From Candidatus Zixiibacteriota bacterium (lineage in GTDB: Bacteria; Zixibacteria; MSB-5A5; JAABVY01): 64,000 nt of DNA. Location: the NCBI GenBank assembly GCA_011056555.1, contig DSEQ01000009.1:16281-80280 (forward strand). The letters run 5' to 3'. Shown in pieces: positions 3,691-48,990 of this stretch. Numbering within the stretch: the first letter of the stretch is position 1; every line of letters begins with the position of its first letter. A program made the translations under genes and the position numbers. Below the pieces are notes generated by a model, which did not search any database, was not told the origin of the DNA, and saw only the letters and a program-made list of their open reading frames with translations.

Positions 3691-3691
3691 A

Positions 3692-7669: not shown

Positions 7670-7671
7670 TT

Positions 7672-8136: not shown

Positions 8137-8151
8137 TCATCCAATTCCTCA

Positions 8152-9912: not shown

Positions 9913-9921
9913 AAAAGTCAG

Positions 9922-10563: not shown

Positions 10564-10565
10564 AT

Positions 10566-11313: not shown

Positions 11314-12060
11314 TTACCTTATTCTGTGACGCACCCACAGATTGGGCTCGGTATAAATACCGACGTTTTTCGCCTCATCAATTACAAGGGGCTGCATGCC
11401 CCCTTTTATGGTGTAATCACCGCTTTCGGGAAATTTCATGTCCGTCCATTCCTCCCATTCAGATAAAGTACCCGTAACGGTTATAGATTTGTCCATAATT
11501 TTAATTATCTCGCCACCCAGTCTCAAATGTATGCGGATCCAGGGATCGAATGTTTCTCCATTTTCGGCCTTTTTATCGATATATTCATCAAAGGGCATTG
11601 AAGGGTAGTTGCTCTTCAATGTGGGTCGGAGAGGAGCAAGCAGATTCCCCATACCATATTTTTTTCCAAGCCATATCATGGCCTTAATCATCCTGGCACT
11701 TAACTTCTCATTTCTGAAATCGGGGTGAATCATTATAGCCAGAGCTGAAATGCTGTCGGGTTTACTTTTGACTTGACGATCCCGGAATGCTCGATGCATA
11801 AGTGCATCGAGGCTCGAGGGAAGATCATCAGGCGAGCCATCCCACCTGAGGGGTACTGTATGCCCGGCGGCAATTACTCTATCGTCATCCAAAACAAAAG
11901 CGATCTGATATTGGGCGAATACATTGAATAATGAACTCCAGTAGCGCACATCCCCATGCAGCAAAAACTTCGGCCACGACAATTCACTGAGTTTGTCAAT
12001 CTCGTGCTTCAAATTGGGTTTTTGATCCAGAGTGATGATGTCAAATTCATGAACCGGCAT
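11314..12060 (-). CDS. Hypothetical protein, possibly a GNAT-like acyltransferase
   Basis: 248-aa ORF with coding-like composition. The segment ALAIMIHPDFRNEKLSARMIKAMIWLGKKYG weakly resembles the GNAT acetyl-CoA-binding segment. No stronger motif was seen. Confidence 0.4.
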   Translation of the reverse strand: MPVHEFDIITLDQKPNLKHEIDKLSELSWPKFLLHGDVRYWSSLFNVFAQYQIAFVLDDDRVIAAGHTVPLRWDGSPDDLPSSLDALMHRAFRDRQVKSKPDSISALAIMIHPDFRNEKLSARMIKAMIWLGKKYGMGNLLAPLRPTLKSNYPSMPFDEYIDKKAENGETFDPWIRIHLRLGGEIIKIMDKSITVTGTLSEWEEWTDMKFPESGDYTIKGGMQPLVIDEAKNVGIYTEPNLWVRHRIR

Positions 12061-32054: not shown

Positions 32055-33362
32055 ATGAATAGACCTGAATCATATCATGCTAATACCGTATGGGTTTTTA
32101 TTCTGACGCTCGTCGTTTTTACGGTTGTTTCCGTTCCGGCATTCTGTTACGAGATCGACACAACAAGAGTCCGCGAGAAGCCCGAAGAGAATATAACATT
32201 CGGGGAGGCGGTGCTGGCTGCGCCGTCATTCATCCTGAATCTCCCCTTCTGGGTGCTGAAAAATGTGTCCGATTTCACGGTAAACGAAATCGTCTATTCC
32301 AAACCCATTCAGGCGCTTTTTGCTTTGAAACTCAGGCCAATTTGGGGATTCTACCCCACAGGGGGCTATAATTCCAACGCCGGCGTTAAAGCTGGAATTG
32401 TCTATAGAGTAAAAGATCTTCTCTCGGAGGAGGAGGATTTTAAGGTCAAAGCCTCCTACTCCACCCACGACTACCAGACCTACAGCCTGAGATACAAGAT
32501 CATGCCTCAGAATTCCATATTCAATGAAGTGCATTTCAATTTTAGTTATAGACAGAAGCCCCGCGAAAGCTTTTATGGCATCGGTAACAGGACCTCAGAT
32601 GACAATGAGGTTGCCTTTAACCTCGAAAACGGATTCATGGGCTTCGGCTGGAACCATGAGATTTCCAGTCAGTTCTCAACCGGAGTTGACTTCTCCTACC
32701 GGATACTGAATATCTATGACGGGCAGGACCCATCATTGACCGGCTCTCTCGATTCTATCCAAGCAAAATTCGATCTCAGCGAGGATGAGCTGGCGAATGC
32801 ACGTGTTCTGACTGTGGGCATGAACCTGAAATATGATTGGCGCGACCACCCCGGGCAGACCACATCTGGAGGATACCACGCCCTTGAGCTGTCCTACAAC
32901 AGGGGCAGAGGACAACTTCAAGACCTTGAATATTTCCTGGCTTCGGTTAGTCTATATCAATTCATTCACATTTACAGGCAAAGAGTGCTGGTTCTTAATT
33001 TCCGCACGGAGACCATTGGCAAAACCGATGGATCGCCGGATTTGCCATTTTATCTGAGACCAGCACTGGGTGGTGAAGAGAGTCTGCATGGATATAAGGA
33101 GCATCGCTTCATAGATAATACAACCATGCTGGCGGCGGTAGAATACCGCTTTCCCCTCTTGCAGGGTGTGGACGGCTTATTGTTTTTTGAAGAGGGTAGA
33201 GTTTTTGATGATTTTTCTAAGGATTTCGATCTGAAAAACTGGCATTATTCTACCGGCATCGGTATCAGGTTGTGGGATCAGGAAGGCCTGAGATTAAACG
33301 GCTATGCTGCTTTCAGCAAAGAGAGTCCGCAATTTTACGTGCATTTGTCCGAAACACTCTAA
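32055..33362 (+). CDS. Omp85/bacterial surface antigen (D15) family outer-membrane barrel without recognisable POTRA domains
   Basis: 435 aa with an N-terminal signal-like helix. The C-terminal region LRPALGGEESLHGYKEHRFIDNTTMLAAVEYRFPL...STGIGIRL resembles the conserved Omp85 barrel end. Alternating beta-strand pattern throughout. Confidence 0.7.
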   Translation: MNRPESYHANTVWVFILTLVVFTVVSVPAFCYEIDTTRVREKPEENITFGEAVLAAPSFILNLPFWVLKNVSDFTVNEIVYSKPIQALFALKLRPIWGFYPTGGYNSNAGVKAGIVYRVKDLLSEEEDFKVKASYSTHDYQTYSLRYKIMPQNSIFNEVHFNFSYRQKPRESFYGIGNRTSDDNEVAFNLENGFMGFGWNHEISSQFSTGVDFSYRILNIYDGQDPSLTGSLDSIQAKFDLSEDELANARVLTVGMNLKYDWRDHPGQTTSGGYHALELSYNRGRGQLQDLEYFLASVSLYQFIHIYRQRVLVLNFRTETIGKTDGSPDLPFYLRPALGGEESLHGYKEHRFIDNTTMLAAVEYRFPLLQGVDGLLFFEEGRVFDDFSKDFDLKNWHYSTGIGIRLWDQEGLRLNGYAAFSKESPQFYVHLSETL

Positions 33363-33373
33363 GGATGCACATT

Positions 33374-35086
33374 ATGAAAAATTATATGAAAATATCTTTA
33401 TTGCTGCTGTCACTGATGCTTATGCTGGGTTGCAGCGGCTACAAACCAGTCTTGCAACCGGAGGGTCCCTACTGGGTTGACGACGATAAACAGGATATCC
33501 CGGAACCATCATCCAAGGACCCAAACTTAGCCTGGATGTCCATCAAGCGTTCCAGCTTCGACCAGATTGAAGACGGCCTCGATCTGGAACGGAATTTCAG
33601 GATTCTATCCGATGAGCGTGAAGAAGCGGCCAATATCAACAGTTTCGACGAGGTTCCCAACTGCACCTGGTTCACCAACCGTCATGGTTTCGCACGCATG
33701 ACTCCGGACGAGATCGCCGAAGGAGTCGATCTCACGCCGGGACCGGACACAAGCGGACCATGGCTTGTATTTCGTCCTAAGGTGCAGGGTACCACTCCCG
33801 GTTTCTGGATCGAGGATTCACGGGGAGATCAATATGTCATCAAATTCGACCCGAAGGGGTATCCTGAGATGGCTACGGCGGCGGCCGCCATGGCTTCCCG
33901 ATATTTCCATGCTTGCGGTTATAATGTGCCCCAGGAAACAATTGTATATTATCGTCCCGAAATCCTTCAGGTCAAAGAAGGGGTGAAGTTTGAAGACAAA
34001 GCTGGTGTGAAACGTGAATTCACTCAGCAGGACTTAGAGGATATTCTTAAACGAGTACATCACGAGCCGGACGGGAGAATTCGGTCACTGGCCTCGCTTT
34101 CTCTGGGAATTCATGGTAAAATCAAGGGCCCTTTCAGCTATAGCGGAAGACGGAGCGATGATCCCAATGACTGGTTCGATCACCAGGACAGGCGGGAATT
34201 GCGCGGGCTGTATGTCATCGGATCGTTCATAAATCATTATGACCTGAAGGACCAGAATTCCCTCGATATCTATGTGGAGGAAAACGGAAATAAATTTCTA
34301 AAGCATTTCCTGATCGATTTCGGTTCCACCTTCGGCTCTGACGGCCAGGGGCCAAAGCCGCCTATTAAGGGCTATGCCAATATGATCGATCTTCGTGACG
34401 CCTTCGTATCCCTGATAACTGTCGGCCTCAAGACATGGGACTGGCGGGGAGGTGGCGAGGTAATCTACCCATCCATCGGCTATTTCGAAGCGGATATCTT
34501 TCAGCCCGATAAGTTCGATCCGATCTACCCCAATCCCGCTTTTGAGGACAAAACCGACCGCGACTGCTACTGGGGAGCCAAAATCGTTATGGCATTCCGC
34601 GACAGTGATTTACGCGCCCTGATCGAAACCGGGCAGTATTCCAATCCCCAAGCCGAGGAATATCTGTTCGAAACCCTGAAAAAGCGCCGCGACAAGATTG
34701 GACGATTCTGGTTTTCAAAGGTCAATCCCCTGGATTATTTTGAAACGGAATATGCTGGCAGTGATCTCAGAATCAGGTTCGATGACCTGGGAATCAAATA
34801 CGAGCTCTGGCCCCAAGATGCGGTCTATGACTATGAAATCAGATACGGCAAGGAACTTATCCGCAAGGATCGGGTTAAAACTGGCGAAATAATTCTGACA
34901 CAGGATGATTTAAATCGCATGACCTCGGCATTTAAAGCCACGGATAAAAAAGAGGATTATATTTACAGGATGGATATCAGAACCACCAGAGGGAATGGTG
35001 ATCCGAGCAAGCCAACCCGATTGCATTTCTGGTATCATCATGATGAAAATAAATTCTCATTGGTGGGAGTCGAACATCTGGATTGA
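33374..35086 (+). CDS. Lipoprotein with a protein-kinase-like (PKL) fold signature
   Basis: Lipobox LMLGCSG (Cys codon at 33431). Kinase-like motifs are QYVIKF (Lys at 33842-33844), HYDLKDQN (34235-34258) and IDFG (DFG at 34316-34324). I chose the start at 33374 (AAGGA lies 8 nt upstream); 33365 and 33386 are alternatives. The track ORF start at 33272 overlaps the upstream gene. Confidence 0.6.
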   Translation: MKNYMKISLLLLSLMLMLGCSGYKPVLQPEGPYWVDDDKQDIPEPSSKDPNLAWMSIKRSSFDQIEDGLDLERNFRILSDEREEAANINSFDEVPNCTWFTNRHGFARMTPDEIAEGVDLTPGPDTSGPWLVFRPKVQGTTPGFWIEDSRGDQYVIKFDPKGYPEMATAAAAMASRYFHACGYNVPQETIVYYRPEILQVKEGVKFEDKAGVKREFTQQDLEDILKRVHHEPDGRIRSLASLSLGIHGKIKGPFSYSGRRSDDPNDWFDHQDRRELRGLYVIGSFINHYDLKDQNSLDIYVEENGNKFLKHFLIDFGSTFGSDGQGPKPPIKGYANMIDLRDAFVSLITVGLKTWDWRGGGEVIYPSIGYFEADIFQPDKFDPIYPNPAFEDKTDRDCYWGAKIVMAFRDSDLRALIETGQYSNPQAEEYLFETLKKRRDKIGRFWFSKVNPLDYFETEYAGSDLRIRFDDLGIKYELWPQDAVYDYEIRYGKELIRKDRVKTGEIILTQDDLNRMTSAFKATDKKEDYIYRMDIRTTRGNGDPSKPTRLHFWYHHDENKFSLVGVEHLD

Positions 35087-35089
35087 TTT

Positions 35090-36319
35090 GTGATCATGAA
35101 GGTAAGTATTTTTATACCCATATCAATTTTATGCCTGTTTCAGGCATTCACATCTCTCCATGCAGAATCCAATGATCCACATGCAATCAGTGGAAGTGAT
35201 TTTGATCATTTAATGAATATCCAGAATGTTGAATTACAGAATAAACTCGAGAATATATTTCCCGAGAGTGAAGGTTATCTGGTAAGCGGACCTCTGTGCG
35301 ACGATACGTTCGAGGACTCTGCGTATTTTTATTGCGGTGCGGTCAGGGTTATTTGCCCAAACCTTAAACTATATAAGCAAGGTATAGACATAGCCGCCGG
35401 CATGGACAGTCTCACTGCAATTACAGATTATCCGGATCCAAGCGGATCATACTATGCCTTTGAAAAATATTATACTTATCATAATGGTAACCTGGTCGAT
35501 ACGTTCAAGTTTGAAACCGCAAATTCCGTTCGGTACGAGCTTGCCTTAAATAAGGAGCTGATATTCAGCCCGCTTCGAAGTGATGTCATCCGCATGCCCG
35601 ATTCAGAACGTAAGGAAATGCATGATTATTTCCTTCAATATGACTCCGGGAATATTCCGGCAGAGCAGCTTTACATACATTACGTACCCTATATCATCGA
35701 GGGCTATCAGAATTACAAAGAGTTCCTTTTAAGTCATGCCGAGATCGATCTCGATTTCATAAGCGGCGTGACCGCCTTTGTACCCACTGAAGAAACTCTG
35801 CAATGGTTCAGGGAGAATGCTCCGCAGGAGGCATATCCCAATAAGGAAGCGTCCAAATTTGAGGAGGAAATTCATGAATTCTTCGAGCGCGGCGGTGATT
35901 TGCGCGTCATCCAGACTTTAACGAAAGAAGGCTTCGACACACTTCAAAGCGGGGAATATTTCTATGCTGTCAGCCCTGCATACAAAATTCGTTTTGGACG
36001 GGAGCTTTTGCGCGAGGAGGTCAAACGTATCGAAGAGGAAACGGGCAAGAAGGTCCCGCGCGCCAATCATGCCTTTTTATTCCCGGGCGAAGCGGTACTG
36101 ACCGCCGGGGCTTTCTGGATAGATACAGACAAGGAAAACAAGCTGGTCAAGGTCAATGCCCAGTCCGGCCATTATTTCTACAGCAATGTTTCCCCGACTA
36201 TCCGCGAGGATATCTCCGAACGTTCCGACCATTACCTGACCACGCTGGGTCATTTTTTCAAGGCCCTTGACAGCCTGCAAATTCCCTGCGATAAGATTCT
36301 CATAAGTAAACTCCAATGA
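35090..36319 (+). CDS. Hypothetical secreted protein (signal peptide, no recognisable domain), visibly AT-rich
   Basis: The N-terminal VSIFIPISILCLFQAFTSLHAESN looks like a signal peptide. The start is GTG at 35090 or ATG at 35096, 3-9 nt after the upstream stop. The ORF is long, with several Cys residues consistent with a periplasmic protein. Confidence 0.5.
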   Translation: MIMKVSIFIPISILCLFQAFTSLHAESNDPHAISGSDFDHLMNIQNVELQNKLENIFPESEGYLVSGPLCDDTFEDSAYFYCGAVRVICPNLKLYKQGIDIAAGMDSLTAITDYPDPSGSYYAFEKYYTYHNGNLVDTFKFETANSVRYELALNKELIFSPLRSDVIRMPDSERKEMHDYFLQYDSGNIPAEQLYIHYVPYIIEGYQNYKEFLLSHAEIDLDFISGVTAFVPTEETLQWFRENAPQEAYPNKEASKFEEEIHEFFERGGDLRVIQTLTKEGFDTLQSGEYFYAVSPAYKIRFGRELLREEVKRIEEETGKKVPRANHAFLFPGEAVLTAGAFWIDTDKENKLVKVNAQSGHYFYSNVSPTIREDISERSDHYLTTLGHFFKALDSLQIPCDKILISKLQ

Positions 36320-36340
36320 TGGCTTGAGCGGTAAGCGGAT

Positions 36341-37192
36341 ATGAAAAAAGTCGGCAGTTACAAGATATTATTGATTCTATCCATACTCTTTTTCTCCTTC
36401 CGGCCTTTACCGGCAGACGACCGTGAATATCTCTCCAGCACAGAGATCACTGGCATATCGGCCGGCTCGATTGCGCTGGGAGCCGCGGGGCTGTGGGCAC
36501 TCGATTTCGATAGCACCCGTCGTCCGGTAATTTCAGGCCCGGCGCCATGGGAAGAGTCGATTCAGCGTTTTCTGGGCGGGAGATACTATCCGGGCAAAAC
36601 CAACTGGCTGGACCACAGCTTCGGCTCTTCCATAACTCCCATTTTGATGGGCGGTTTGCTTCTGGGCGCCGATATCAGCTGGCCCCGGTATGATCGCGCC
36701 AAAGATGTCTGGCAGGATATGTTTTTGTACGGCGCGGGCCTTCTTGCAACCAAAGGCGTTACCGGGATCACCAAGGGTTTCTTCGCACGTCCGCGTCCCA
36801 TGGTCGCGCTTGAGCCTGAGCTTTACAACCGGAATAAAAATAATGATTACGCCCAGGATCGGGCTTCATTCTTCTCGGGTCATACCTCCAGCGCCTTTTT
36901 CTCCACCGCTTTTCTGAATATGCGCATCCGCCAGATCATGCGCCAGGAGATGACCTATAATGACTACAAGGACTGGCGCTGGCTGCCGCCGACAATCCTG
37001 TTCGGCTGGGCCTCCTACGTGGGCTACACCCGTATCGATGCTTATAAACACTATATAACCGATGTTGTTTTTGGAGCTCTGGCAGGATGGGTGATGGCGG
37101 AGCTGTTTTATCATTTCGGCGACAATATAGAAAAGCCCCGGGACTCATCATCAAGGGGCAAGGTTCTATTCAAAATAGGATTCAGCTTTTAG
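36341..37192 (+). CDS. PAP2-family (type 2 phosphatidic acid phosphatase-like) membrane phosphatase
   Basis: All three PAP2 motifs are present: KGFFARPRP (KxxxxxxRP), SGH (FFSGHTS) and RIDAYKHYITD (SRxxxxxHxxxD-like). Several TM helices. Confidence 0.8.
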   Translation: MKKVGSYKILLILSILFFSFRPLPADDREYLSSTEITGISAGSIALGAAGLWALDFDSTRRPVISGPAPWEESIQRFLGGRYYPGKTNWLDHSFGSSITPILMGGLLLGADISWPRYDRAKDVWQDMFLYGAGLLATKGVTGITKGFFARPRPMVALEPELYNRNKNNDYAQDRASFFSGHTSSAFFSTAFLNMRIRQIMRQEMTYNDYKDWRWLPPTILFGWASYVGYTRIDAYKHYITDVVFGALAGWVMAELFYHFGDNIEKPRDSSSRGKVLFKIGFSF

Positions 37193-37671
37193 ATAAATGT
37201 CTTCACGATCTCGGTCTGCAAACCCTGAAGCTCACCATAGGCCTTATTGATTTCCGCTATCTTCTCCTCCAGCTTTTTCATGAGCTTTTGTCTTTCGATG
37301 CCATTCCGAAGAACGATCAGGAGATCATCATTATCCCACGGTTTCTCAATATACTGGAACAGTCCGACGTCATTTATAGCCTTGATTGCATTTTCCTTGT
37401 CGGCATAACCGGTCAGAATAATACGAGGCACCTGGGGCCGCATCTCCTTGACCTTTGCCAGAAAGGATATCCCATCCATCTCCGGCATCAGATAATCGGA
37501 AATCACCACATCAATCTCATTCTTCTTGATATATTCCAGCGCGTCTTTCGCTGAGGTGAAGGTCTCGACAGTGTATTCCGTCTCGAGGCTCAAGAATGAA
37601 TTGAGGCTCGTCAGGACCATCTCTTCATCATCAACGATTACGACCGTGCTTTTCTCCTTATCATCAACCAT
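37189..37671 (-). CDS. Single-domain response regulator (REC) with a C-terminal coiled-coil
   Basis: VVIVDDEE...VVISDYLMPEMDG...ILTGYADKENAIKAIN contains the phospho-acceptor Asp context. The product is 160 aa. Confidence 0.85.
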   Translation of the reverse strand: MVDDKEKSTVVIVDDEEMVLTSLNSFLSLETEYTVETFTSAKDALEYIKKNEIDVVISDYLMPEMDGISFLAKVKEMRPQVPRIILTGYADKENAIKAINDVGLFQYIEKPWDNDDLLIVLRNGIERQKLMKKLEEKIAEINKAYGELQGLQTEIVKTFI

Positions 37672-37673
37672 CT

Positions 37674-38900
37674 CTATCTCCTGTCTGTGTTAATTTCGAT
37701 TCCGAACAGTGTAACATCATCACTATACACCCCGCCATTAAAATCACCCAGGGACTCCGCCAGGCCATTAATTATTTCCCCGCAGGCGGAGCTGCCTAAT
37801 TTCTTCAAGACTTCGGGCAGATTTTTGCTTTCAAAAAAGTCTCCATCCTTGTTGACCGCCTCGGTCAGTCCGTCAGTATATAATATCAAACTGTTGCCCG
37901 GGTCAAGCATTACTGCTTTATCCGGCCCCGGCTTATACATTTCCGGTCTTATAAAGCCCAGCATCATACCGTTAGACGCAACCAGTTCCGATTTGTTTTC
38001 CTGCTTGCGAATAAGATACGGATAAGTCAAGCCGCCGTTAGATATGGTGATCTCCCTTTTGCCCGGATCGATCCTGGCAACCAGTGCCGCCACATAGAGT
38101 TCCTCCGGGAGGCCCTTCTCCAGGATTTCGTTCATGCCGCTCAGGATTTGCGAGGGTTGATGGTTTCCTCCGGCAAATGATACGAAGGCGAATTTCAGAA
38201 GCGCGGTGCTCAGAGCCGCCTGTATGCCATGCCCGGTGGCATCCGCCACCAATACCGACCAGCAGCCGTCCTGCATCGGTATGATATCATAAAAATCACC
38301 GCCAATCTCTATCGCCGGCTTATAGTAAGTTTCAAATTTCACGCCGTCAATTTGGGGAAGTTTACGCGGCAGCAATGCCTGCTGGAGCTTGCGGGCAAGC
38401 TTCAGCTCACGTGCAATCATATTGTTGTGTTCAAAGAGCTCATCACGATGTCTCAGGACTTCATCCAGCTCCTTGATCTTCATGTGCAGATGCTCTCTCA
38501 GGCTCTTGGATTCAATAGCATTTTTGAGAACCAGCTTAAGCTGTTCATTGTCCCATGGTTTTTCCAGGTACTGGAACAGGCTTACCTCGTTGATGGCCTT
38601 GATGGCATTTTCCTTGTCGGCATAACCGGTAAGAAGAATCCGGGGCAGGTCGGGATACATTTCCCGCACTGCACTCAAAAACTGCAGACCGTTCATATCC
38701 GGCATCAGGAAATCGGATATAACCACATCCACCGGCTTCTGCTTCAGCCGCTCCAGAGCCTCATGCGGTGACTGGTAGCCGATCACATTGTATTCGGTCT
38801 CCAGTTCCAGAAAAGATCCCAGGCTCTGCACCACAATCTCATCGTCATCGACCAGCATTATGGTTTTTGACGATCTCTCATCCATATTACTATCGCTCAT
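37674..38900 (-). CDS. Response regulator fused to a PP2C/SpoIIE-type phosphatase (RsbU-like)
   Basis: The N-terminal REC domain is paralogous to the downstream gene. The C-terminal part has GGDFYDIIP...LVADATGHGIQAAL...LYTDGLTEA, which are SpoIIE/PP2C motifs. Confidence 0.9.
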   Translation of the reverse strand: MSDSNMDERSSKTIMLVDDDEIVVQSLGSFLELETEYNVIGYQSPHEALERLKQKPVDVVISDFLMPDMNGLQFLSAVREMYPDLPRILLTGYADKENAIKAINEVSLFQYLEKPWDNEQLKLVLKNAIESKSLREHLHMKIKELDEVLRHRDELFEHNNMIARELKLARKLQQALLPRKLPQIDGVKFETYYKPAIEIGGDFYDIIPMQDGCWSVLVADATGHGIQAALSTALLKFAFVSFAGGNHQPSQILSGMNEILEKGLPEELYVAALVARIDPGKREITISNGGLTYPYLIRKQENKSELVASNGMMLGFIRPEMYKPGPDKAVMLDPGNSLILYTDGLTEAVNKDGDFFESKNLPEVLKKLGSSACGEIINGLAESLGDFNGGVYSDDVTLFGIEINTDRR

Positions 38901-40480
38901 CGTCCTCGAATTGGAATTATGATTCTGAAGGTTGTACCCTGATTCACTCTGGATTCGACCTCGATTCGGCCCTTATGGTCCTCAGTTATCTGGTGAACGA
39001 TCGAAAGCCCCAGGCCGGTTCCGACCCCGGCGCCTTTGGTTGTATATCCCGGATCAAATACCCGTTCCAGTTTATCCTCGGGAATTCCGCGGCCGGTATC
39101 GGAAAATTCAATAACAGCATCGCCGCCCTGGCGGCGTGTTCTGATAATAATCTTACCTTTATCCTCGATAGCCTGGCTGGCATTGACCAGTATATTCATA
39201 AAGACCTGGTTAAGCTGGTTGGGATAGCAGCTTATCTTCGGCAAATCCCCATAATCCTTTTCAACTTCCACCCGATCCTTGAGCTGGTGATGCACCAGTG
39301 TCAACGTATTTTCTATGCCGTCATGGATATTTACAGTATCCATTTCCGCCTGGTCGAGGCGGGCGAATTTGCGCAGGCTGCTGACAATATTGATTATTCG
39401 GGAAGAGGCTGTTTTATTGATCCGGGTGAGATCTTCCATATTTTCCAACAGCTTACCGAGCTGCTTGCTTTCACGAAATTCGGTCGGCGCAGCAGAATCG
39501 GAGACCATGGCCTTCAGCTTCTCGATAGAGCGGATGAAAAGATCGTTGTTGCTGTTGAGTGCTCCCAATGGCGTATTGATTTCGTGGGCTACGCCCGCCA
39601 CCAGATTACCGAGGGCAGCCATTTTTTCCGCCTGCACCAGCTGCGTCTGTTTCTGTCGCAGCTCCCTTGTCCGTTCCTCCACCTTCTGCTCGAGCTCCTC
39701 GTTAGCTTTTTTCAGCTCCTGCTCAAGCCGGTATCGGGTCGTAACGTCCTGCACAATATTCAGTTCGCGCCAGTTATGTTTAATATCCCGAAAATAGCCG
39801 GTGGTGAACTGGTAAACTCTGTTGTTGGGAAATATCCTCTCCTCCACATAGACGCCGTCCTCGCTCAGGATCTGCTCGCTTTCCACCCGCTGATCGTCAA
39901 TAGACTGCTCCCAACCGCATGGGCAGCCCTCATCCCGGGCCCGGTCAAAAATCTCTTTCAGCTTTTTATTCTCAAATTCAACTTTCGGTTCGCCATTTAT
40001 ATTCTTACGTACCCCCAGACCGACCGGCATTAGATCAAGAATATATTCATAATATTCGCGCAGGCGTCTATTCTCCCTCTGCAAAAGAACGCGACTTGTT
40101 ATGTCACGGCAAATACGCTGAATGATCTTCTTGTCCCCGTAATTTATGACTCCTGCGGAAATTTCTATATCCAGGAGGGTCTTATCTTTTCGCAGAAAAT
40201 GCAGTTCGCCGGTATAGCCCTTACCGCTTTCCACCACCTGGTTAAAAAGCCGCCTGGATTCCTCCCACTCAGATTCGGGATGGAGTTCCCAGACTTTCTT
40301 ACCCACTAACTCGTCAACGCTGAAGCCGGTCAGCTTCTCGGCCCTGAGATTCGCCTCCAGTATGGTGCCGTCAGCCGGTTCGATCGAAAAGATGGCGTCG
40401 CTGGCCATCTCGATCATCTTGCGGTATTTCTCTTCCGACTCCCGCAGGCTTTTTAAATCGGAGTTATCTGCCTTAACCAT
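38897..40480 (-). CDS. PAS-domain sensor histidine kinase
   Basis: Two PAS-like segments, the HisKA H-box AGVAHEINTPLGAL, and an HATPase_c domain with an N box (NILVNASQA) and G boxes (DTGRGI, GTGLGLS). Confidence 0.9.
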   Translation of the reverse strand: MVKADNSDLKSLRESEEKYRKMIEMASDAIFSIEPADGTILEANLRAEKLTGFSVDELVGKKVWELHPESEWEESRRLFNQVVESGKGYTGELHFLRKDKTLLDIEISAGVINYGDKKIIQRICRDITSRVLLQRENRRLREYYEYILDLMPVGLGVRKNINGEPKVEFENKKLKEIFDRARDEGCPCGWEQSIDDQRVESEQILSEDGVYVEERIFPNNRVYQFTTGYFRDIKHNWRELNIVQDVTTRYRLEQELKKANEELEQKVEERTRELRQKQTQLVQAEKMAALGNLVAGVAHEINTPLGALNSNNDLFIRSIEKLKAMVSDSAAPTEFRESKQLGKLLENMEDLTRINKTASSRIINIVSSLRKFARLDQAEMDTVNIHDGIENTLTLVHHQLKDRVEVEKDYGDLPKISCYPNQLNQVFMNILVNASQAIEDKGKIIIRTRRQGGDAVIEFSDTGRGIPEDKLERVFDPGYTTKGAGVGTGLGLSIVHQITEDHKGRIEVESRVNQGTTFRIIIPIRGR

Positions 40481-40508
40481 ATTTTCATATCCGGTCCCGG
40501 CGCCGATG

Positions 40509-40937
40509 TCAGGCTACTCGTTCGACCAAATTCCTGAGCCTCTTTACCACAGTCTTGATTACGCCCTGCGCAATCTGCACATGGTCGGCCAGCAGATCGA
40601 TGAAATCCTCGCGGTCGACACGAAGCAGACGGCAGTCTGCGGCCGCGGTTGCGGTTACCACTCTCGGCTCCTCATCAAAAAGAGCCCAGGTACCAAAGGC
40701 ATCGTCTTTTTCTGCAGTGGAAATTTCCTGGTCGCCTCTGTGCAGCTTCACCTTGCCCTCCAGCACAAGGTAGAGCGCATCCGAGGGATCATGTTCCTTG
40801 TAGATCACGTCCCCCTTGATATATTCCACTTCCTCTGCTATCGAGGCCAGAGAGGCCAGCTGCTCGGTGGGCACTTCCGAGAAAACATCGATATTCTGCA
40901 AAAGAATTACTTTTTCAACAATAGAAAGCATACTCAA
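40509..40937 (-). CDS. Stand-alone cyclic-nucleotide-binding (CAP/cNMP) domain protein
   Basis: 142 aa. GDVIYKEHDPSDALYLVLEGKVKL...FGTWALFDEEPRVVTATAAADCRLL follows the cNMP beta-roll and phosphate-binding-cassette pattern. Confidence 0.8.
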   Translation of the reverse strand: MSMLSIVEKVILLQNIDVFSEVPTEQLASLASIAEEVEYIKGDVIYKEHDPSDALYLVLEGKVKLHRGDQEISTAEKDDAFGTWALFDEEPRVVTATAAADCRLLRVDREDFIDLLADHVQIAQGVIKTVVKRLRNLVERVA

Positions 40938-40986
40938 TACTCTTTATTTAAACAACGTCATTTCCACATCAAAGTTCTTACAGGCA

Positions 40987-43758
40987 CTATGTTTCAAACC
41001 GCTTAACCACTCTTTCCGCAGTCTCCTTTACCAATGGGTCGGGATCATTTTGAGCGTCGTGGATTAGCTTCCTCATATTCTCGGAAGCATTAGCGGTAAC
41101 ATTATAGATCGCACAACACCTGAGCCAATTATCGTGACCCTTGATAAGGCGCTCCAGGGCTTCCTCCCGGGTACGGGTCTTGACACGGAAAAACTCCTCG
41201 CCTTTGCGAAGCACTGTTTCGACCGGAACATCATCGAGTATCGGGAGAATATATTTCTTTACGTCGCGACTCAGGAGATTATCGAGAAACTCGATAGCAT
41301 TGGCCTGAAGCACCTTTTTGCCGCTCACGAACCCCTGATAGGCATAAAATATGTCTGTGGGAGGATAGACCAGACCCAGGAGCCGGAATATCCGTTCGAG
41401 GTTGTACTGCTGTTTTTCTTCCAGCGCCTTTTTCAGGAGTTTGGAACCCGGTGATTCATCGAATTGCCTGTGGGAATATAGGATCTGGTAAATTTCATAA
41501 TAATCCTTGATTTCATTCAGAAGGACCTGTTCCACCTTCCCATGGTCAAAGCTGAGCTCCGAATAGACGCTTCGCAGGCTGTTCAGGGCTTTGACCACAT
41601 GATATTTCAGGGAGGGTTCCACCTTATCCAGGTTGTCGGTCAAAACATCAACTGTCTCCTGCTCAGGAATCAGCTTCATCACCCTTGGTATATTTTTGCG
41701 AATATTGTAATCGACTGCGCGGTCGTGCAGGTAATCGCTGAGGGTCCCCAGCACGCCTGTTCCGAAATCGGCCAGCGCTTTGCGAACATTTGCGCGCAAA
41801 TCCCTGTCGGTCAATCTCTCGATCAGCCAGGGTATATATTTGCGCCGTTTCAAACGGCCGATGCATTCTATCGCATTTTTCACCACCTCGATCGACTTAT
41901 CATTAAGCAGAATCTCTATGTAGCCGCTGAATTCCGGTTTGTTCACCACGCCCAGAATCCGGGCGACCTGAATACGGCTCAATTCCGCCTCCTCAGATAT
42001 ATCGCGCATGGCCGCCTTTATGAGTTCCTCATCGACCAGCTCCCTTTCCTCCGGACGGCCATAATCGGTAAGATATGCCAGAGCTGCATTGACTATGCGA
42101 GGGTCATCGCTGCGCAGGTATTCCCGCAGTTTTTCCAGAGTATCTCCCTCGGTTCGGGAGCATATGAAGTGCACGGCCTCCGAACGGACCTCAATGTCCT
42201 CATCAGTCAGCATCTTCTCTACTATCTCCATATGCGAGCGGTCGCCATGCTCGAGAAGCACCTTCAGCGCATCGAGCCTGATGTCGGCCGACTCATGCCT
42301 CAAATGAGGAACTACTTTTTCCACCCTCTCAACATTCTTCACCGAACGCAGCATCTCCAGCGCATATCCAATCTGCCGATCATTGGGGCTGTCCAGCGAA
42401 TTTATCAGCGCATTGATGGTGGAGCGGTCATCGATCTGAACGGTGAGCCTGGAATAGTCGATCTCGCGCTTTTCAATGGCTCTGCGGAATGAATTCAGAT
42501 ATTCCTTCCGCATGAAGACAGTCAGGGTTAACCAGATAAGCAGTAATCCAATCACGATCAGACTGATTTCCTTTACCGTCAGATGAAAGACGAGGGTGCA
42601 GAGAAGCAGAAGGGCGCCGGCAAATCCGCGGAACCACCTGTCCACGAACATATCGATAAATATTTTTGTGCGCTTTTTTACCTCCAGCGGTATGGGCAAA
42701 AACAGCAATTCCCTGCCGGTCTTGTCCATAGAATATTTTATACTGCCATCCACTCCCCTCAGCATTATACCGGCAATCAAGCCGGGGAAGAGAAACATCG
42801 CCGCTGAGCCAAGCAATAATCCCGTCGGCAGAAACATAATGATACCGCCCACCCCCAAAAAGCGAATTAGCCTGTATGTAAAAAACAATTGCAGTATTAG
42901 TGAAGCCATGCTGAGCCAGCTGTAGAACTGTCCGAAGAATGATGTCAGATCAGCTTTTTCCGGATAAGCAGCTTTGGATACGGTTTTGAACTGCCAATCC
43001 ACAAATGAAGCCACCATCATGGTTATAGCTATAATACCCACAAGCAATAACAGGTGGCGTGACCTGAAAATCGTCTTTGTAATCTGCCCCAGCTTTTCCC
43101 CGGGGGGCTCGCGATGGCGAGCGGAACGCTGAAGTTCCTTCTCCGAAACAGTCTTCTTCTTCCAGATTACGGCTACCAGTAAAGCTACAATTACGAGCGG
43201 TACCATACAGATAAATAAGAGGTTTTCCGTGCCTACATCCAGGGCCTTGACGAGGAAACTGGTGACCTGTCCACCGGTGAAGGCGCCGATAATCCCCCCC
43301 AGTCCGAGTAATGTGAAGACTCGTTTGGCCTGTGCAGAATTATACACGGCATTGGCCAGAAGCCAGAATTGGGAGGTCGTAAGCACGCCATAGATGCTCA
43401 CCCATGTATAAAATAGATAATAAACCCAGGCGCTGGAGATCTGGACCAGCCAGCGCAGAATAAAAAGATTCACTATAATAATGGCAAGAGTGAAAATAAT
43501 CAGTCGATTCAGCTTCAACGAACGGCTGGCCCTGGAATAAAGTGTAACAACAGGAGCGGTCACCAGGGCGGTGATAATGAAAACAAGCGGGAGCATCTCC
43601 GAACTGACCCTCACCAGAAACAGCGAATCCCTGGCGGGTTTAAGCAGGTAATAGCTCAAAAGGATCAGGTAATAACTGGACAGCATCAGCAGGGTCAGTG
43701 CGATTTCACCCTTCCTGATGTCAAATATCGATTTGAGAAAACTCTTCATCGAATTCAT
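40987..43758 (-). CDS. TLC/AAA-family (ATP:ADP antiporter-like, MFS-type) membrane domain fused to a C-terminal HEAT-repeat domain
   Basis: 923 aa. The N-terminal LLSYYLLKPARDSLFL resembles the TLC-family start and is followed by ~11-12 TM segments. The C-terminal ~480 aa carry repeated HEAT-like units (ADIRLDALKVLLEHGD, DEDIEVRSEAVHFI, DPRIVNAALAYL, DPLVKETAERV). Confidence 0.7.
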   Translation of the reverse strand: MNSMKSFLKSIFDIRKGEIALTLLMLSSYYLILLSYYLLKPARDSLFLVRVSSEMLPLVFIITALVTAPVVTLYSRASRSLKLNRLIIFTLAIIIVNLFILRWLVQISSAWVYYLFYTWVSIYGVLTTSQFWLLANAVYNSAQAKRVFTLLGLGGIIGAFTGGQVTSFLVKALDVGTENLLFICMVPLVIVALLVAVIWKKKTVSEKELQRSARHREPPGEKLGQITKTIFRSRHLLLLVGIIAITMMVASFVDWQFKTVSKAAYPEKADLTSFFGQFYSWLSMASLILQLFFTYRLIRFLGVGGIIMFLPTGLLLGSAAMFLFPGLIAGIMLRGVDGSIKYSMDKTGRELLFLPIPLEVKKRTKIFIDMFVDRWFRGFAGALLLLCTLVFHLTVKEISLIVIGLLLIWLTLTVFMRKEYLNSFRRAIEKREIDYSRLTVQIDDRSTINALINSLDSPNDRQIGYALEMLRSVKNVERVEKVVPHLRHESADIRLDALKVLLEHGDRSHMEIVEKMLTDEDIEVRSEAVHFICSRTEGDTLEKLREYLRSDDPRIVNAALAYLTDYGRPEERELVDEELIKAAMRDISEEAELSRIQVARILGVVNKPEFSGYIEILLNDKSIEVVKNAIECIGRLKRRKYIPWLIERLTDRDLRANVRKALADFGTGVLGTLSDYLHDRAVDYNIRKNIPRVMKLIPEQETVDVLTDNLDKVEPSLKYHVVKALNSLRSVYSELSFDHGKVEQVLLNEIKDYYEIYQILYSHRQFDESPGSKLLKKALEEKQQYNLERIFRLLGLVYPPTDIFYAYQGFVSGKKVLQANAIEFLDNLLSRDVKKYILPILDDVPVETVLRKGEEFFRVKTRTREEALERLIKGHDNWLRCCAIYNVTANASENMRKLIHDAQNDPDPLVKETAERVVKRFET

Positions 43759-47574: not shown

Positions 47575-48990
47575 GTGAAAAAGTACCTGTCAGTAACATT
47601 GAAACCCATATTTGCACTTGTGGCAATCCTGACCCTGGCGGTCTTTACCGGATGCAGTGACGATGACAACAATAGTTCGGTCGGTCCTGATGACGGCGAT
47701 GAATCTTTCGCCTTTTTATTCGATGATATGATCCAGGCCGGTGACAGCATGAACCTTTCTGCCGATAGCAACTGGCTCGTGAGCGGCTTCGTGTTTGTCG
47801 AGGAAGGCGCCGCATTGTCGATAGAACCGGGCGCGGTCATACGATTTAGGCCGGGTACCGGAGTCAATGCCAGCGCTTTGATAATTGCCCGGGGCGGAAG
47901 GATCTGGGCCAACGGCACGCAGGATAATCCCATCATCTTTACAGCGGAAGTTGACGATGTCAATGATCCCAGCGACCTGGGCCTCTTCGACAACGGTCTC
48001 TGGGGCGGTTTGATCATCCTTGGAAGCGCAACCGTGAATACCCCTACAGGTCTCAGCCAGATCGAAGGCATCCCTTCGGACGAAATTCGCGGCGAATACG
48101 GCGGAAATGACGACAACGACAATTCCGGGTCGCTCCGCTATGTCTCTATCCGTCACGGCGGATCGGAAATCGGGGCTGCCAACGAGATCAACGGTTTGAC
48201 CCTGGGCGGAGTCGGCAGACAGACTGTAATTGAATATGTCGAAATCTACTCCAATTTTGATGATGGTGTGGAATTCTTCGGCGGTGTACCCAGCACCAGG
48301 AACATCGCGGTCGCCTTCTGCGGCGATGACGCTTTTGATTATGATGAAGGGTTCCGCGGCAATGGCCAGTTCTGGTTTGCGGTGCAACATGAAAAAGTCG
48401 GCAACAGGTGCGGCGAGCATGACGGCGCCACAGGCGATGAGCAGGGTACACCCTTTGCTCATCCTATCATCTCCAACGCCACCTACATCGGCTCCGGAAA
48501 CCGCTCCGCCAACAGCGACAACGATTACGCAATCATCATGCGTGATAACGCAGGCGGTGAATATCACAACAGCATCTTCTACGGTTTCCAGGGCTCCGGC
48601 TTGCATGTCGAGGACAAGACCGGCGAAGCGATCGAACACAGCCGTGCCCGGCTTGAGGCCGGCGATATCGTCTTCAATAACAATATCTGGTACAGCTTTG
48701 GCGCAGGCAACACAATGAACGATGTTTTCCAGCAGGAGTTCGTCAGAACCGTTATGGCTCAGCAGGGCTGGACCAACGAAATGGTCGATCCGTTAATCAA
48801 CTCAGTGGCCAGGCTTAATACCGGCGCATTGAATCCGGTGCCCAGTGCATCCGGACCTGCCGCCAATGCGGCTGATCAGCCCGCAGGCGCTTTCTTCCAG
48901 AATGTCAGCTACAAAGGCGCATTTCAGCCCGGTTCTGCAAACTGGCTTAAGGGATGGACGGCCCTGGATCATTACGGGTTCCTGCAATAA
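47575..48990 (+). CDS. Lipoprotein of unknown function, partner of the TonB-dependent receptor
   Basis: Lipobox LAVFTGCSDDD. The Gly/Asp-rich repetitive segments (GGLIILGSATVN, GLTLGGVGRQTVIEYVEIY, DDGVEFFGG, DDAFDYDEG) suggest a beta-helix-like fold. It starts 48 nt after the receptor gene. Confidence 0.6.
   Translation: MKKYLSVTLKPIFALVAILTLAVFTGCSDDDNNSSVGPDDGDESFAFLFDDMIQAGDSMNLSADSNWLVSGFVFVEEGAALSIEPGAVIRFRPGTGVNASALIIARGGRIWANGTQDNPIIFTAEVDDVNDPSDLGLFDNGLWGGLIILGSATVNTPTGLSQIEGIPSDEIRGEYGGNDDNDNSGSLRYVSIRHGGSEIGAANEINGLTLGGVGRQTVIEYVEIYSNFDDGVEFFGGVPSTRNIAVAFCGDDAFDYDEGFRGNGQFWFAVQHEKVGNRCGEHDGATGDEQGTPFAHPIISNATYIGSGNRSANSDNDYAIIMRDNAGGEYHNSIFYGFQGSGLHVEDKTGEAIEHSRARLEAGDIVFNNNIWYSFGAGNTMNDVFQQEFVRTVMAQQGWTNEMVDPLINSVARLNTGALNPVPSASGPAANAADQPAGAFFQNVSYKGAFQPGSANWLKGWTALDHYGFLQ

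Follow-up and report, generated by a model that had tools for sequence, protein, structure and literature searches.

Omp85-family outer-membrane barrels that lack POTRA domains form a 'noNterm' class (Heinz and Lithgow 2014, PMC4104836), exemplified by Leptospira LIC12252, LIC12254 and LIC12258, whose genes lie next to lipoprotein genes and whose function is undetermined (PMC11358297). Atypical protein-kinase-like enzymes include H. pylori CtkA, HipA, PI4K type II, Fam20C and Fam20B, CotH and actin-fragmin kinase, several of which (Fam20, CotH and CtkA) act outside the cytosol. In eukaryotes, Fam20C and Fam20B phosphorylate their targets in the Golgi/ER lumen, where ATP is supplied by an ATP/ADP exchanger (SLC35B1/AXER). 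A further family, the functionally uncharacterised NTT-HEAT proteins, fuses a TLC/NTT (ATP/ADP translocase) transporter to HEAT repeats and is encoded beside a cNMP-binding protein (Major, Embley and Williams 2017, PMC5381601). Here, we describe a Zixibacteria locus that brings counterparts of these elements together: a small Omp85 barrel encoded with a lipoprotein that has a predicted kinase fold with intact catalytic residues, next to phosphatases with export signals and ATP/ADP-type transporters. We found no published description of this combination. The arrangement suggests, but does not demonstrate, ATP-driven phosphorylation outside the cytoplasm.

The locus lies in a 64,000-nt window of a Candidatus Zixiibacteriota genome (GCA_011056555.1, contig DSEQ01000009.1, positions 16,281 to 80,280), and positions below are those of the window. 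A preliminary description had reported four tightly packed, co-directional genes (32055-37192), each with an export signal, and re-examination of the sequence bore this out: the four open reading frames lie exactly there, with gaps of 11, 3 or 9 (depending on the start codon of the third gene) and 21 nt. The unit is, however, larger than these coordinates, as it continues into a convergent set of genes (37189-43758). The features are as follows.

32055-33362, plus strand: A, a POTRA-less ('noNterm') Omp85-family barrel of 435 aa, comprising a signal peptide, a roughly 60-aa N-terminal segment with an invariant Pro64 motif and the barrel from about residue 92 (32328-33359).

33374-35086, plus strand: B, a lipoprotein of 570 aa from the ATG that gives MKNYMKISLLL...LGC, with lipobox Cys20 (33431-33433), an atypical protein-kinase-like domain (about aa 130-450; 33761-34723), a C-terminal FN3/Ig-like sandwich (about aa 453-568; 34730-35077) and the catalytic residues K157 (33842-33844), D290 (34241-34243), N295 (34256-34258) and D315 of DFG (34316-34318).

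35090-36319, plus strand: C, a two-domain protein with a secretion signal, of 409 aa from the GTG at 35090 or 407 aa from the ATG at 35096, with a degenerate RelA/SpoT-synthetase-like N-domain (about aa 60-185; 35267-35644) and a strongly conserved C-domain of unknown function (about aa 195-409; 35672-36316).

36341-37192, plus strand: D, a PAP2 phosphatase of 283 aa, with motifs C1 KGFFARPRP (36773-36799), C2 SGH (36875-36883) and C3 TRIDAYKHYITD (37028-37063), and a C-terminal beta-signal-like strand VLFKIGFSF (37163-37189).

37189-37671, minus strand: E, a single-domain response regulator of 160 aa, convergent with D, the two stop codons overlapping by 4 nt.

37674-38900, minus strand: F, a response regulator with a PP2C (SpoIIE) phosphatase domain, 408 aa.

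38897-40480, minus strand: G, a PAS histidine kinase, 527 aa.

40509-40937, minus strand: H, a stand-alone cNMP-binding-domain protein of 142 aa with no signal peptide.

40987-43758, minus strand: I, NTT-HEAT, 923 aa, with an N-terminal multi-helix transporter domain of the TLC/NTT family (aa about 20-420) fused to cytoplasmic HEAT repeats.

The export signals of A-D were assessed by inspection and hydropathy only. A has a hydrophobic h-region at residues 12-30 (Kyte-Doolittle 2.5), B has an h-region followed by the lipobox Cys20, and C has an h-region at residues 1-19 (Kyte-Doolittle 2.1). D starts MKKVGSYKILLILSILFFSF, and its orthologues have clear, cleavable-looking signals. Across the B family, a lipobox pattern identified a signal peptide plus Cys in 74 of 83 open reading frames; most of the other nine also show a signal followed by Cys on inspection, and at least three have an ordinary signal peptide instead.

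A is an Omp85 barrel. It matches NCBIfam NF047779 at E 9.5e-22, although below the cut-off of that family, and its orthologues carry PF01103. A profile built from the A family matches BamA and TamA barrels in the PDB, with A residues 92-348 aligning to E. coli BamA 420-665, whereas no POTRA or DUF5982 model matched in the domain-profile search. The L6 (L/I)RG(F/Y) and beta13 F.(D/E).G.V motifs are kept across the family, the corresponding sequences in the window protein being LHGY and FFEEG. B contains the kinase-like motifs VIK157FD, HYD290LKDQN295 and D315FG. Its predicted structure is confident (pLDDT 90.5), and a fold search with it confirmed an atypical protein-kinase fold of the CtkA, PI4K-II, Fam20, HipA and CotH branch, followed by the FN3-like domain. 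The closest folds are the Ser/Thr kinase CtkA, which is the best match, and the lipid kinase PI4K-II. K157, D290, N295 and D315 are kept in 76-77 of 77 homologues from about ten phyla, among them Zixibacteria, Calditrichia, KSB1, Gemmatimonadota, Acidobacteriota, Poribacteria and Marinimicrobia. No Pfam, NCBIfam or PADLOC family matched B or C.

C had been described as lacking domains, which holds only for Pfam and NCBIfam: structure and profile searches show the RelA/SpoT-like N-domain, which is catalytically degenerate, and the conserved C-domain. D matches PAP2 (PF01569) at 76 bits against a cut-off of 27 and retains all three motifs. Its nearest solved relatives are the phospholipid phosphatases PLPP2 (E 9e-10) and PLPP1 (E 3e-7). 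The earlier designation of D as polytopic is not secure, as its helices are only weakly hydrophobic. All 31 non-identical orthologues of D end, after a polar linker, in an alternating hydrophobic strand with a terminal F, L or I, an unexpected feature that resembles the beta-signal of outer-membrane proteins.

For the convergent genes, E matches PF00072 at 99 bits, F matches PF00072 and PF07228, G matches PAS, HisKA and HATPase_c, and H matches PF00027 at 70.6 bits. I matches PF03219 at 75.8 bits against a cut-off of 21 and HEAT_2 at 83.6 bits, but TIGR00769 at only 56 bits against a cut-off of 387.

To determine which of these genes belong together, we compared gene order in related genomes, synteny having been named beforehand as a possible point of failure for the operon. 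A lies directly upstream of B in 71 of 73 loci, at 36-88% B identity and across about ten phyla. The conserved core is A and B only: C occurs in 18 of 80 loci and D in 31 of 80, and both are lineage-specific accessories, C being found only in some Zixibacteria. The A-B-C-D or A-B-D order accounts for 31 of the 80 genome loci, which by name and similarity are Zixibacteria. In 10 of the 80 loci, from other phyla, a Metallophos lipoprotein takes the slot after B that C and D fill here; these Metallophos proteins have lipoprotein signals. Among the 44 loci with at least 6 kb on both sides, 31 carry PAP2 or Metallophos and 32 carry an NTT-family gene within 10 kb, whereas 12 have no NTT gene within that distance. 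The NTT genes are a stand-alone NTT and/or, usually, NTT-HEAT with the cNMP-binding protein and a response regulator. The cNMP-binding gene directly follows NTT-HEAT in 31 of 80 loci, and the order NTT-HEAT, cNMP-binding protein, response regulator recurs in nine of the more distant loci (KSB1, LCP-89, Ca. Electryonea and unclassified MAGs), whereas in Zixibacteria the response regulator sits next to D. F occupies the same position in several Zixibacteria loci, and histidine-kinase genes flank A-B or the NTT genes in many loci. In the relatives that we designate L003/L026, L016 and L020, the genes form one co-directional run, A-B-C-NTT-HEAT-cNMP-binding protein-PAP2. The NTT linkage appears across phyla in at least six different gene orders and orientations, which argues for selection on the linkage rather than inherited gene order. 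The stand-alone NTT is homologous to the chloroplast ADP/ATP carrier NTT1 (9j3j, E 2e-13).

On the basis of these comparisons, our preferred but tentative interpretation is that the locus is part of a conserved module for ATP-dependent phosphorylation outside the cytoplasm. What the analysis establishes is the near-constant encoding of a POTRA-less barrel directly upstream of a lipoprotein bearing an export signal, the kinase fold of the latter with catalytic residues kept across phyla, and the repeated linkage of the pair to phosphatases with export signals (PAP2 in Zixibacteria and Metallophos elsewhere) and to inner-membrane transporters of the NTT family. The rest, including any catalysis, localisation, transport or interaction, is inferred from sequence, predicted structure and gene order alone. 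In this view, B would be lipid-anchored in the outer membrane and work together with A, which may hold B or expose it at the cell surface; the NTT exchangers would export cytoplasmic ATP to the periplasm in exchange for the ADP that the kinase produces; B would transfer phosphate to an envelope target that could be a protein, a lipid or a glycan; and the PAP2 or Metallophos enzyme would reverse or process the phosphorylated product. In Zixibacteria, PAP2 may dock on A through its C-terminal strand. The HEAT and cNMP-binding proteins and the two-component genes would regulate the nucleotide supply from the cytoplasmic side. ATP export has precedent, as NTT-type translocases expressed in cyanobacteria or E. 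coli export ATP when given external ADP (PMC11632070).

Several points weigh against this model. Adenine nucleotides are only presumed substrates of these NTTs, given the low TIGR00769 score of NTT-HEAT and the fact that characterised NTTs also carry NAD, other NTPs or SAM. NTT-HEAT is widespread in cyanobacteria, chlamydiae and proteobacteria (PMC5381601), and no B homologue from those groups appeared in our searches, so its general role cannot be to feed B. Moreover, 12 of the 44 fully flanked loci have no NTT gene within 10 kb. The periplasm is generally held to lack ATP, which outer-membrane porins would leak, and Omp85 barrels with an L6 lid are not known to export folded lipoproteins. 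The model also does not explain the degenerate RelA/SpoT-like domain of C, which lies between B and D here. The preliminary interpretation, a dedicated system that displays or activates a lipoprotein through its own barrel and remodels phosphorylated envelope lipids or glycans, is supported only in part: the operon, the absence of POTRA domains, the kinase fold with intact catalytic residues, the intact PAP2 and the synteny all hold, and we found no described system with this combination, but none of our analyses showed that the barrel displays or activates the lipoprotein or that the target is a lipid or a glycan.

Of the alternatives, the one closest to that idea survives best, although we consider it unlikely: B would be a lipid or glycan kinase comparable to PI4K-II, Fam20B, WaaP or KdkA that acts on lipid A, LPS core or a phospholipid at the outer membrane, PAP2 would be the matching lipid-phosphate phosphatase, A would serve only as the assembly or anchoring factor of B, and the NTT genes need not be involved mechanistically. 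The similarity of D to PLPP1, PLPP2 and PLPP3 (E 9e-10) and, weakly, to LpxE supports this reading, as does the common occurrence of A-B-D and A-B-C-D orders in Zixibacteria. However, PAP2 is absent from the module outside Zixibacteria, where a Metallophos lipoprotein follows B instead; the best fold match of B is a protein Ser/Thr kinase; no sequence-level match to WaaP, KdkA or any lipid-kinase family was found in the Pfam and NCBIfam searches; and a periplasmic phosphate donor is still needed, which is exactly what the NTT linkage addresses.

Two further readings seem less likely still. In the first, nucleotide scavenging, the module would capture external nucleotides or nucleic-acid breakdown products, with A as an outer-membrane conduit, B as a nucleotide-binding surface or periplasmic lipoprotein, the Metallophos or PAP2 enzyme processing phosphoesters and the NTTs importing nucleotides across the inner membrane, as they do in intracellular parasites. 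All characterised bacterial NTTs import nucleotides (PMC5381601), one of the two Metallophos proteins scanned shows faint similarity to the cyclic-nucleotide phosphodiesterase SpdA (E 1e-4), B has a nucleotide-binding fold, and pairs of a surface lipoprotein and a barrel are a common nutrient-uptake design in the FCB group. A pure binding protein, however, would not need the catalytic-loop Asp and Asn and the DFG Asp that are almost invariably kept, Omp85 barrels are not known as solute channels and A keeps the L6 lid motifs, and phosphatases would destroy the NTT substrates. In the second, equally doubtful, A would be a dedicated translocon that flips or exposes B at the cell surface, as Slam or TpsB do for their cargo, B would act on external or neighbouring-cell targets, as the secreted kinase CtkA does, and the NTT and regulatory genes would be unrelated neighbours. 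The A-then-B order with small gaps or overlaps resembles TpsB/TpsA operons and the Leptospira noNterm Omp85 genes followed by lipoprotein genes (PMC11358297), and CtkA is the best structural match of B. In contrast, A lacks the POTRA domains that TpsB proteins use for cargo recognition and keeps the L6 lid-lock motifs, which the Leptospira study cites as an argument against a transport role; B has no TPS domain hit; a kinase at the cell surface would have no ATP source in the environment; and the NTT linkage across phyla is too frequent to be unrelated. The weakest alternative, that these are independent envelope genes adjacent through shared ancestry within a few related lineages, can cite the reliance of all coupling evidence on gene order, the restriction of C and D to Zixibacteria and the 12 of 44 loci without a nearby NTT gene, but is very unlikely given the A-B adjacency across about ten phyla, an NTT linkage that survives inversions and reshuffling, and gaps of 3-21 nt in the window.

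Compared with the systems described so far, A shares with the Leptospira noNterm paralogues a barrel protein of about 420-445 aa without POTRA domains, the L6 and beta13 lid-lock motifs and a lipoprotein gene immediately downstream. It does not match DUF5982, the marker of the Leptospira and Cytophagales subgroup, its partner has a kinase fold rather than being an adhesin-like DUF1566 or Big-domain protein, and no link to NTT transporters has been reported for those paralogues. B shares with the atypical kinases the catalytic Lys, an HxD....N catalytic loop and a DFG-type Asp, and its D290-D315 spacing of 25 residues resembles that expected of CtkA and HipA. Identity to these enzymes is only 10-14%, none of their Pfam or NCBIfam models matches B, and B is a protein of a diderm bacterium with a Sec/lipoprotein export signal, an N-terminal extension and a C-terminal FN3-like domain. 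H and I have the architecture described by Major et al., with the cNMP-binding gene within tens of nucleotides of NTT-HEAT, but here the pair sits in a wider module with A-B, a response regulator and often a second, stand-alone NTT; in the parts of that paper that we consulted, no neighbouring Omp85, kinase or phosphatase genes were described.

The proposed model follows the same logic as phosphorylation in the eukaryotic secretory pathway, namely a kinase in a compartment that makes no ATP, an antiporter that brings ATP in and takes ADP or AMP out, and luminal phosphatases. There, however, the transporter family is unrelated (SLC35, not NTT) and the compartment is bounded by a tight membrane, whereas the periplasm is leaky through porins and the bacterial version is only inferred. 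D shares the three catalytic motifs and an active site expected outside the cytoplasm with the periplasmic-face PAP2 enzymes PgpB, LpxE, LpxF and LpxT and with eukaryotic PLPP1-3, but has a cleavable-looking signal peptide, weakly hydrophobic helices and the conserved C-terminal strand, which to our knowledge has not been described in any of these enzymes. This strand recalls beta-signal docking at the lateral gate of an Omp85 barrel, as in TamA-TamB and in BamA with its substrates: an alternating hydrophobic strand with a terminal aromatic residue could pair with strand beta1 of A. For D and A this is inferred from a sequence pattern only, A having no POTRA domains and D being a helical enzyme rather than a beta-barrel substrate or a TamB-like groove protein.

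The window contains four co-directional ORFs, separated by gaps of 11, 3 or 9, and 21 nt, so that the operon-like arrangement given in the preliminary description is confirmed:

32055-33362, plus strand: A, an Omp85-family barrel protein without POTRA domains, 435 aa
33374-35086, plus strand: B, a putative lipoprotein with a predicted kinase fold, 570 aa from the ATG that gives MKNYMKISLLLLSLMLMLGC
35090 or 35096 to 36319, plus strand: C, a putatively exported protein with a degenerate RelA/SpoT-like N-domain, 409 or 407 aa
36341-37192, plus strand: D, a PAP2 phosphatase family protein, 283 aa
43758 to 37189, minus strand: a tightly packed run that includes NTT-HEAT (I; an ATP/ADP-translocase-family transporter fused to HEAT repeats), a stand-alone cNMP-binding protein (H, 40509-40937), a histidine kinase, a PP2C response regulator and a single-domain response regulator

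Judged by inspection and hydropathy, each of the four plus-strand products starts with a hydrophobic export-type segment, which in B ends in a lipobox Cys20. Base composition is flat and the flanking genes are housekeeping genes (complex I (Nuo), GlnRS, GatB/E-like and NAD synthase (NadE)), indicating ordinary chromosome, and we therefore rejected an origin as a mobile element or genomic island. Scans for tRNAs, Rfam families and tandem repeats found nothing relevant, and promoter and terminator scans were at shuffle level. The organism is a member of Zixibacteria; C is 100% identical to a protein on a JGI contig, and the nearest named relatives of B and C are Zixibacteria MAG proteins. Elsewhere in the window, a TonB-dependent receptor with an N-terminal carboxypeptidase-regulatory-like domain (SusC-like architecture; 44597-47527) is followed by a 471-aa ORF (47575-48990) with no Pfam match at E <= 1e-5, which may be a divergent SusD-like partner. 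In addition, a 645-aa GatB/GatE-type amidotransferase subunit (59326-61263) has its catalytic domain stretched over residues 16-454, implying a large insertion as in archaeal GatE, and is encoded in the same window as a GlnRS-type class I synthetase (12173-13897).

The A protein gave no significant Pfam match, with no PF01103 hit at E <= 0.1, although PF01103 is recorded on orthologues, and NCBIfam NF047779 (‘Omp85 family’) matched at E 9.5e-22, below that family's cut-off. A single-sequence search of A against the PDB found nothing useful. In contrast, a profile of 51 family members matched a POTRA-domain protein (9ccg) at E 1e-15 and BamA at E 3e-13 to 1e-7, covering A residues 92-433, and also TamA; A residues 92-348 align to Escherichia coli BamA 420-665, which is barrel only. 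A is thus homologous to the C-terminal 16-strand barrels of BamA and TamA. No POTRA model matched at E <= 0.1, the barrel alignment starts at about residue 92, leaving about 60 mature residues, and the family is uniformly about 420-445 aa, so that A lacks the one to five N-terminal POTRA domains of the BamA, TamA and TpsB subfamilies. The Omp85 L6 motif ((V/L)RG(F/Y), in this family (L/I)RG(F/Y)) and the β13 FxDxG lid-lock motif (in this family F.(D/E).G.V) are present in nearly all of the 51 aligned members. In the window protein and its closest relative (from L004, one of the related loci described below), however, the otherwise near-invariant Arg of L6 is His (LHGY; residues 341-344, 33075-33086), and the β13 partner motif reads FFEEG rather than F.D.G (residues 376-382, about 33180-33200). 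A is therefore a ‘noNterm’ Omp85 in the sense of Heinz and Lithgow, but it gave no Pfam hit at E <= 0.1 to DUF5982, the motif spanning the first two barrel strands that marks the Leptospira-type subgroup (PMC11358297).

For B, Pfam and NCBIfam searches gave no hit at E <= 0.1, including to Pkinase, HipA_C, PI3_PI4_kinase, CotH and Fam20C, and single-sequence and profile searches of the PDB found no kinase; only a fold search revealed the bilobal kinase fold, which belongs to the HipA/CtkA/PI4K-II/Fam20/CotH branch of the protein-kinase-like superfamily. The AlphaFold2 model, built from 60 homologues, is confident (pLDDT 90.5, pTM 0.90). The kinase-like motifs noted in the preliminary description are VIK157FD, HYD290LKDQN295 and D315FG, corresponding by motif order and spacing to the ATP-binding Lys, the catalytic-loop Asp and Asn and the metal-binding DFG Asp. 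Across 77 non-identical homologues from about ten phyla, K157, D290, N295 and D315 are present in 76-77. The window protein carries the lipobox LMLGC20, and Cys20 is invariant in 60 Zixibacteria sequences. Across phyla, our lipobox pattern found a signal peptide plus Cys in 74 of 83 ORFs; most of the other nine also show a signal followed by Cys on inspection, and at least three have an ordinary signal peptide instead. On this sequence and model evidence, B is an exported, almost certainly lipid-anchored protein with a kinase fold, and its catalytic residues are under strong constraint.

C, described beforehand as domain-less, is so only for Pfam and NCBIfam. C itself gave no PF04607 hit and a single-sequence PDB search found nothing useful, but the family profile hits the RelA/SpoT homologue (RSH) YwaC at E 0.03, and in a search of 1.84 billion representatives all seven of the weak N-domain hits that we scanned (profile positions about 33-205) are PF04607 proteins; the N-domain has an RSH synthetase-like fold. 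The positions aligned with the G-loop-region Asp (Syn2) and the Glu of the ExQxRT motif (Syn4), 81 and 138, hold L/V/I/Y and T/S/L/Y across 68 sequences and are not acidic in any consistent way. The domain is therefore catalytically degenerate for canonical pyrophosphotransfer, and we rejected the idea that C is an active exported alarmone synthetase. Most invariant residues lie in a C-terminal domain (about residues 195-409) with no informative match. The family is small, with 114 representatives, and among the loci that we fetched it occurs only in those that look like Zixibacteria.

D matches PAP2 (PF01569) at 76.3 bits against a cut-off of 27.2. The three catalytic motifs (KxxxxxxRP, (P)SGH and (S/T)RxxxxxHxxxD) are found at residues 145, 179 and 230, and at equivalent positions in all 31 orthologues. 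The nearest solved relatives are the lipid phosphate phosphatases PLPP2 and PLPP1 (E 9e-10 and 3e-7). Two features were unexpected. First, by hydropathy alone, the N terminus looks like a cleavable signal and only one internal segment reaches Kyte-Doolittle 1.5 over 19 residues, while the orthologues have 17-residue hydropathy peaks of 1.0-1.9 and a cleavable-looking signal peptide; the ‘polytopic’ topology proposed in the preliminary description is thus unproven, integral-membrane PAP2 enzymes such as PgpB or PLPP having six hydrophobic transmembrane helices. Second, D (residues 275-283, 37163-37189) and all 31 non-identical orthologues (loci L001-L043 and L079) end, after a polar linker of about 15-20 aa, in an alternating hydrophobic strand whose last residue is F in 27 and L or I in the others, as in VLFKIGFSF, MMISINFKF and IFHLSFKF. 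This pattern is that of an outer-membrane-protein β-signal; it is absent from B, C and the Metallophos proteins described below, is unusual for a helical phosphatase and is suggestive given the adjacent Omp85 barrel.

To examine the genomic context, we fetched 80 loci encoding B relatives from species-representative genomes, together with three found through identical proteins (L-numbers denote individual loci), and annotated their six-frame ORFs with profiles and seed sequences. A lies immediately upstream of B on the same strand in 71 of the 73 loci with enough upstream DNA. B identity to the window protein ranges from 88% down to 36%, and the genomes are named as Zixibacteria, Calditrichia, KSB1, Latescibacterota, Gemmatimonadota, Acidobacteriota/Aminicenantes, Poribacteria, Marinimicrobia, Krumholzibacteriia and Eisenbacteria. 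The two exceptions are L071:9395-11716 (Latescibacterota chromosome CP070631), in which an A-like ORF was detected downstream of B instead, and L044:9986-11671. One contig from an unclassified MAG (L060:4950-11605) carries two tandem barrel-kinase pairs, with the B genes at 6519-8288 and 9917-11605, showing that the A-B unit duplicates as a pair. C occurs in 18 of 80 loci and D in 31 of 80, and by name and similarity these loci are all Zixibacteria. In 10 other loci the slot after B holds a ~430-aa ORF, which we considered as a distant C homologue and rejected, because the C profile does not hit these ORFs and they are Metallophos (PF00149) proteins; the two that we inspected have lipoprotein signals.

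Among the 44 loci with at least 6 kb on both sides, 32 carry a gene of the NTT/TLC (ATP/ADP translocase) family within 10 kb, and 31 carry PAP2 or Metallophos. The NTT genes come in two forms: a stand-alone ~450-aa NTT placed directly before A or after B or Metallophos, and a ~930-aa NTT-HEAT fusion that in most loci is followed by a cNMP-binding protein (cNBD) and often a single-domain response regulator (RR). I matches PF03219 at 75.8 bits against a cut-off of 21, the stand-alone NTTs of other loci match it at 48-92 bits, and a stand-alone NTT is homologous to the chloroplast ADP/ATP carrier AtNTT1 (9j3j, E 2e-13), but TIGR00769 scores are far below its cut-off, indicating divergent members. 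In the window, A-B-C-D is convergent with RR-(PP2C)-(HK)-cNBD-NTT-HEAT. Other orders include A-B-C-NTT-HEAT-cNBD-D, all on one strand (L003/L026, L016 and L020); NTT-A-B; A-B-Metallophos-NTT-NTT-HEAT-cNBD-RR, with a histidine-kinase gene upstream in several of these loci; and A-B-NTT-HEAT. In one Zixibacteria subclade (L019, L024, L027-L030, L033, L035 and L079, about positions 2300-6200 in each locus) the NTT-HEAT gene is consistently split into two adjacent ORFs, a transporter part of about 1.3 kb and a HEAT part of about 1.5 kb, and the block lies upstream of and divergent from A-B. Linkage that survives this much rearrangement argues for functional coupling. In the window, the minus-strand run from 43758 to 37189 forms the second half of the module, and its last gene, encoding the response regulator, shares 4 nt with D at the convergent stop codons (37189-37192), leaving no intergenic terminator between the two operons. 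In the region of H that we take to be the phosphate-binding cassette, the sequence reads FGTWALFDEEPRVVTA and, judged by eye against the CRP pattern, lacks the usual Gly-Glu and Arg-Ser/Thr-Ala signature, so binding of cAMP or cGMP is uncertain.

What the analysis establishes is the pairing of a putatively exported lipoprotein of predicted kinase fold with a POTRA-less Omp85 barrel, and the linkage of this pair to phosphatases with export-type signals, NTT-family transporters and signalling proteins; phosphotransfer by B, its lipidation and final location, ATP/ADP counter-exchange by the NTTs and every other functional step are inferred. A kinase outside the cytoplasm needs a phosphate donor, and the only recurrent neighbours that could supply one are the NTTs. 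NTT-type translocases expressed in cyanobacteria or E. coli export ATP when external ADP is offered (PMC11632070). We therefore propose, tentatively, that NTT exchangers deliver ATP to the periplasm and retrieve ADP, that B, held at the outer membrane with A, phosphorylates an envelope target, and that PAP2 or Metallophos removes or processes the phosphate, with the HEAT, cNMP-binding and two-component proteins regulating the supply. The β-signal-like tail of D may dock on the lateral gate of A. Several points speak against this model, which names neither a kinase target nor a role for C: the NTT substrates are inferred from homology to a family in which NTT-HEAT is a divergent member, NTT-HEAT occurs widely in lineages where no B homologue appeared in our searches (PMC5381601), a quarter of the well-flanked loci lack a nearby NTT gene, and porins would leak ATP. 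Of the alternatives, lipid or LPS remodelling without NTT involvement survives best, although it seems unlikely; nucleotide scavenging and dedicated surface export of B are less likely still. The absence of any joint function is the least probable.

The interpretation offered in the preliminary description is partly supported: it set the boundaries of the unit wrongly, and it over-weighted PAP2 and the ‘orphan’ protein C. The locus is part of a widespread module, the most economical reading of which is phosphorylation outside the cytoplasm. In its broadest form, which is possible but less likely than not, many uncultured diderm phyla, including Zixibacteria, Calditrichia, KSB1, Gemmatimonadota, some Acidobacteriota, Poribacteria and Marinimicrobia, would supply their periplasm with ATP. 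Inner-membrane NTT-type ATP/ADP exchangers would feed a lipid-anchored kinase held by its own POTRA-less Omp85 barrel at the outer membrane, exported PAP2 or Metallophos phosphatases would close the cycle, and cNMP-binding and two-component regulators would control it. If the model holds, this reversible phosphorylation system would contradict the textbook view that the bacterial periplasm has no ATP-driven enzymology and would add a bacterial counterpart to eukaryotic secretory-pathway kinases. It would also assign a role to two orphan groups, the POTRA-less Omp85 barrels and the NTT and NTT-HEAT transporters of free-living bacteria, giving the latter their first function, a question open since at least 2017 (PMC5381601). 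Even if the mechanism is wrong, B defines a large, structurally confident protein family of more than 2,300 clusters at 90% identity from about ten phyla, without a Pfam or NCBIfam model but with intact kinase catalytic residues and a near-obligate barrel partner, making it a concrete, testable target in microbial dark matter. The 240 listed relatives of B are unnamed or called ‘hypothetical’ and have no Pfam domain, and the named ones come from MAGs; a search with a Calditrichia B homologue for a cultured carrier likewise returned only MAG ‘hypothetical’ proteins among the 120 best hits.

Literature searches for a periplasmic kinase, for ATP export and for an Omp85-kinase link returned no description of an Omp85 barrel with an exported kinase, or of either with NTTs, although the literature covered was incomplete and absence is not proof. 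Compared with two-partner secretion, A has no POTRA domains, in contrast to TpsB, which has two, and B has no TPS or haemagglutination-domain hit. Compared with known anti-phage defence systems, A-D gave no hits to PADLOC models, and only generic domain-level matches appeared for the HEAT, cNMP-binding, histidine-kinase and receiver domains. noNterm Omp85 genes next to lipoprotein genes have been noted in Leptospira, without a function (PMC11358297). The NTT-HEAT and cNMP-binding genes of the window, separated by 49 nt, share the architecture of the group of Major et al. 2017, in which an NTT is fused to C-terminal HEAT repeats with an adjacent or fused cNMP-binding domain, a combination that has been noted but not explained (PMC5381601). 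B and C fit no curated sequence family, but each part belongs to, or resembles, a known superfamily (noNterm Omp85, protein-kinase-like, RSH, PAP2 and NTT-HEAT with cNBD), and we regard the module as new as a system, built from recognisable parts.
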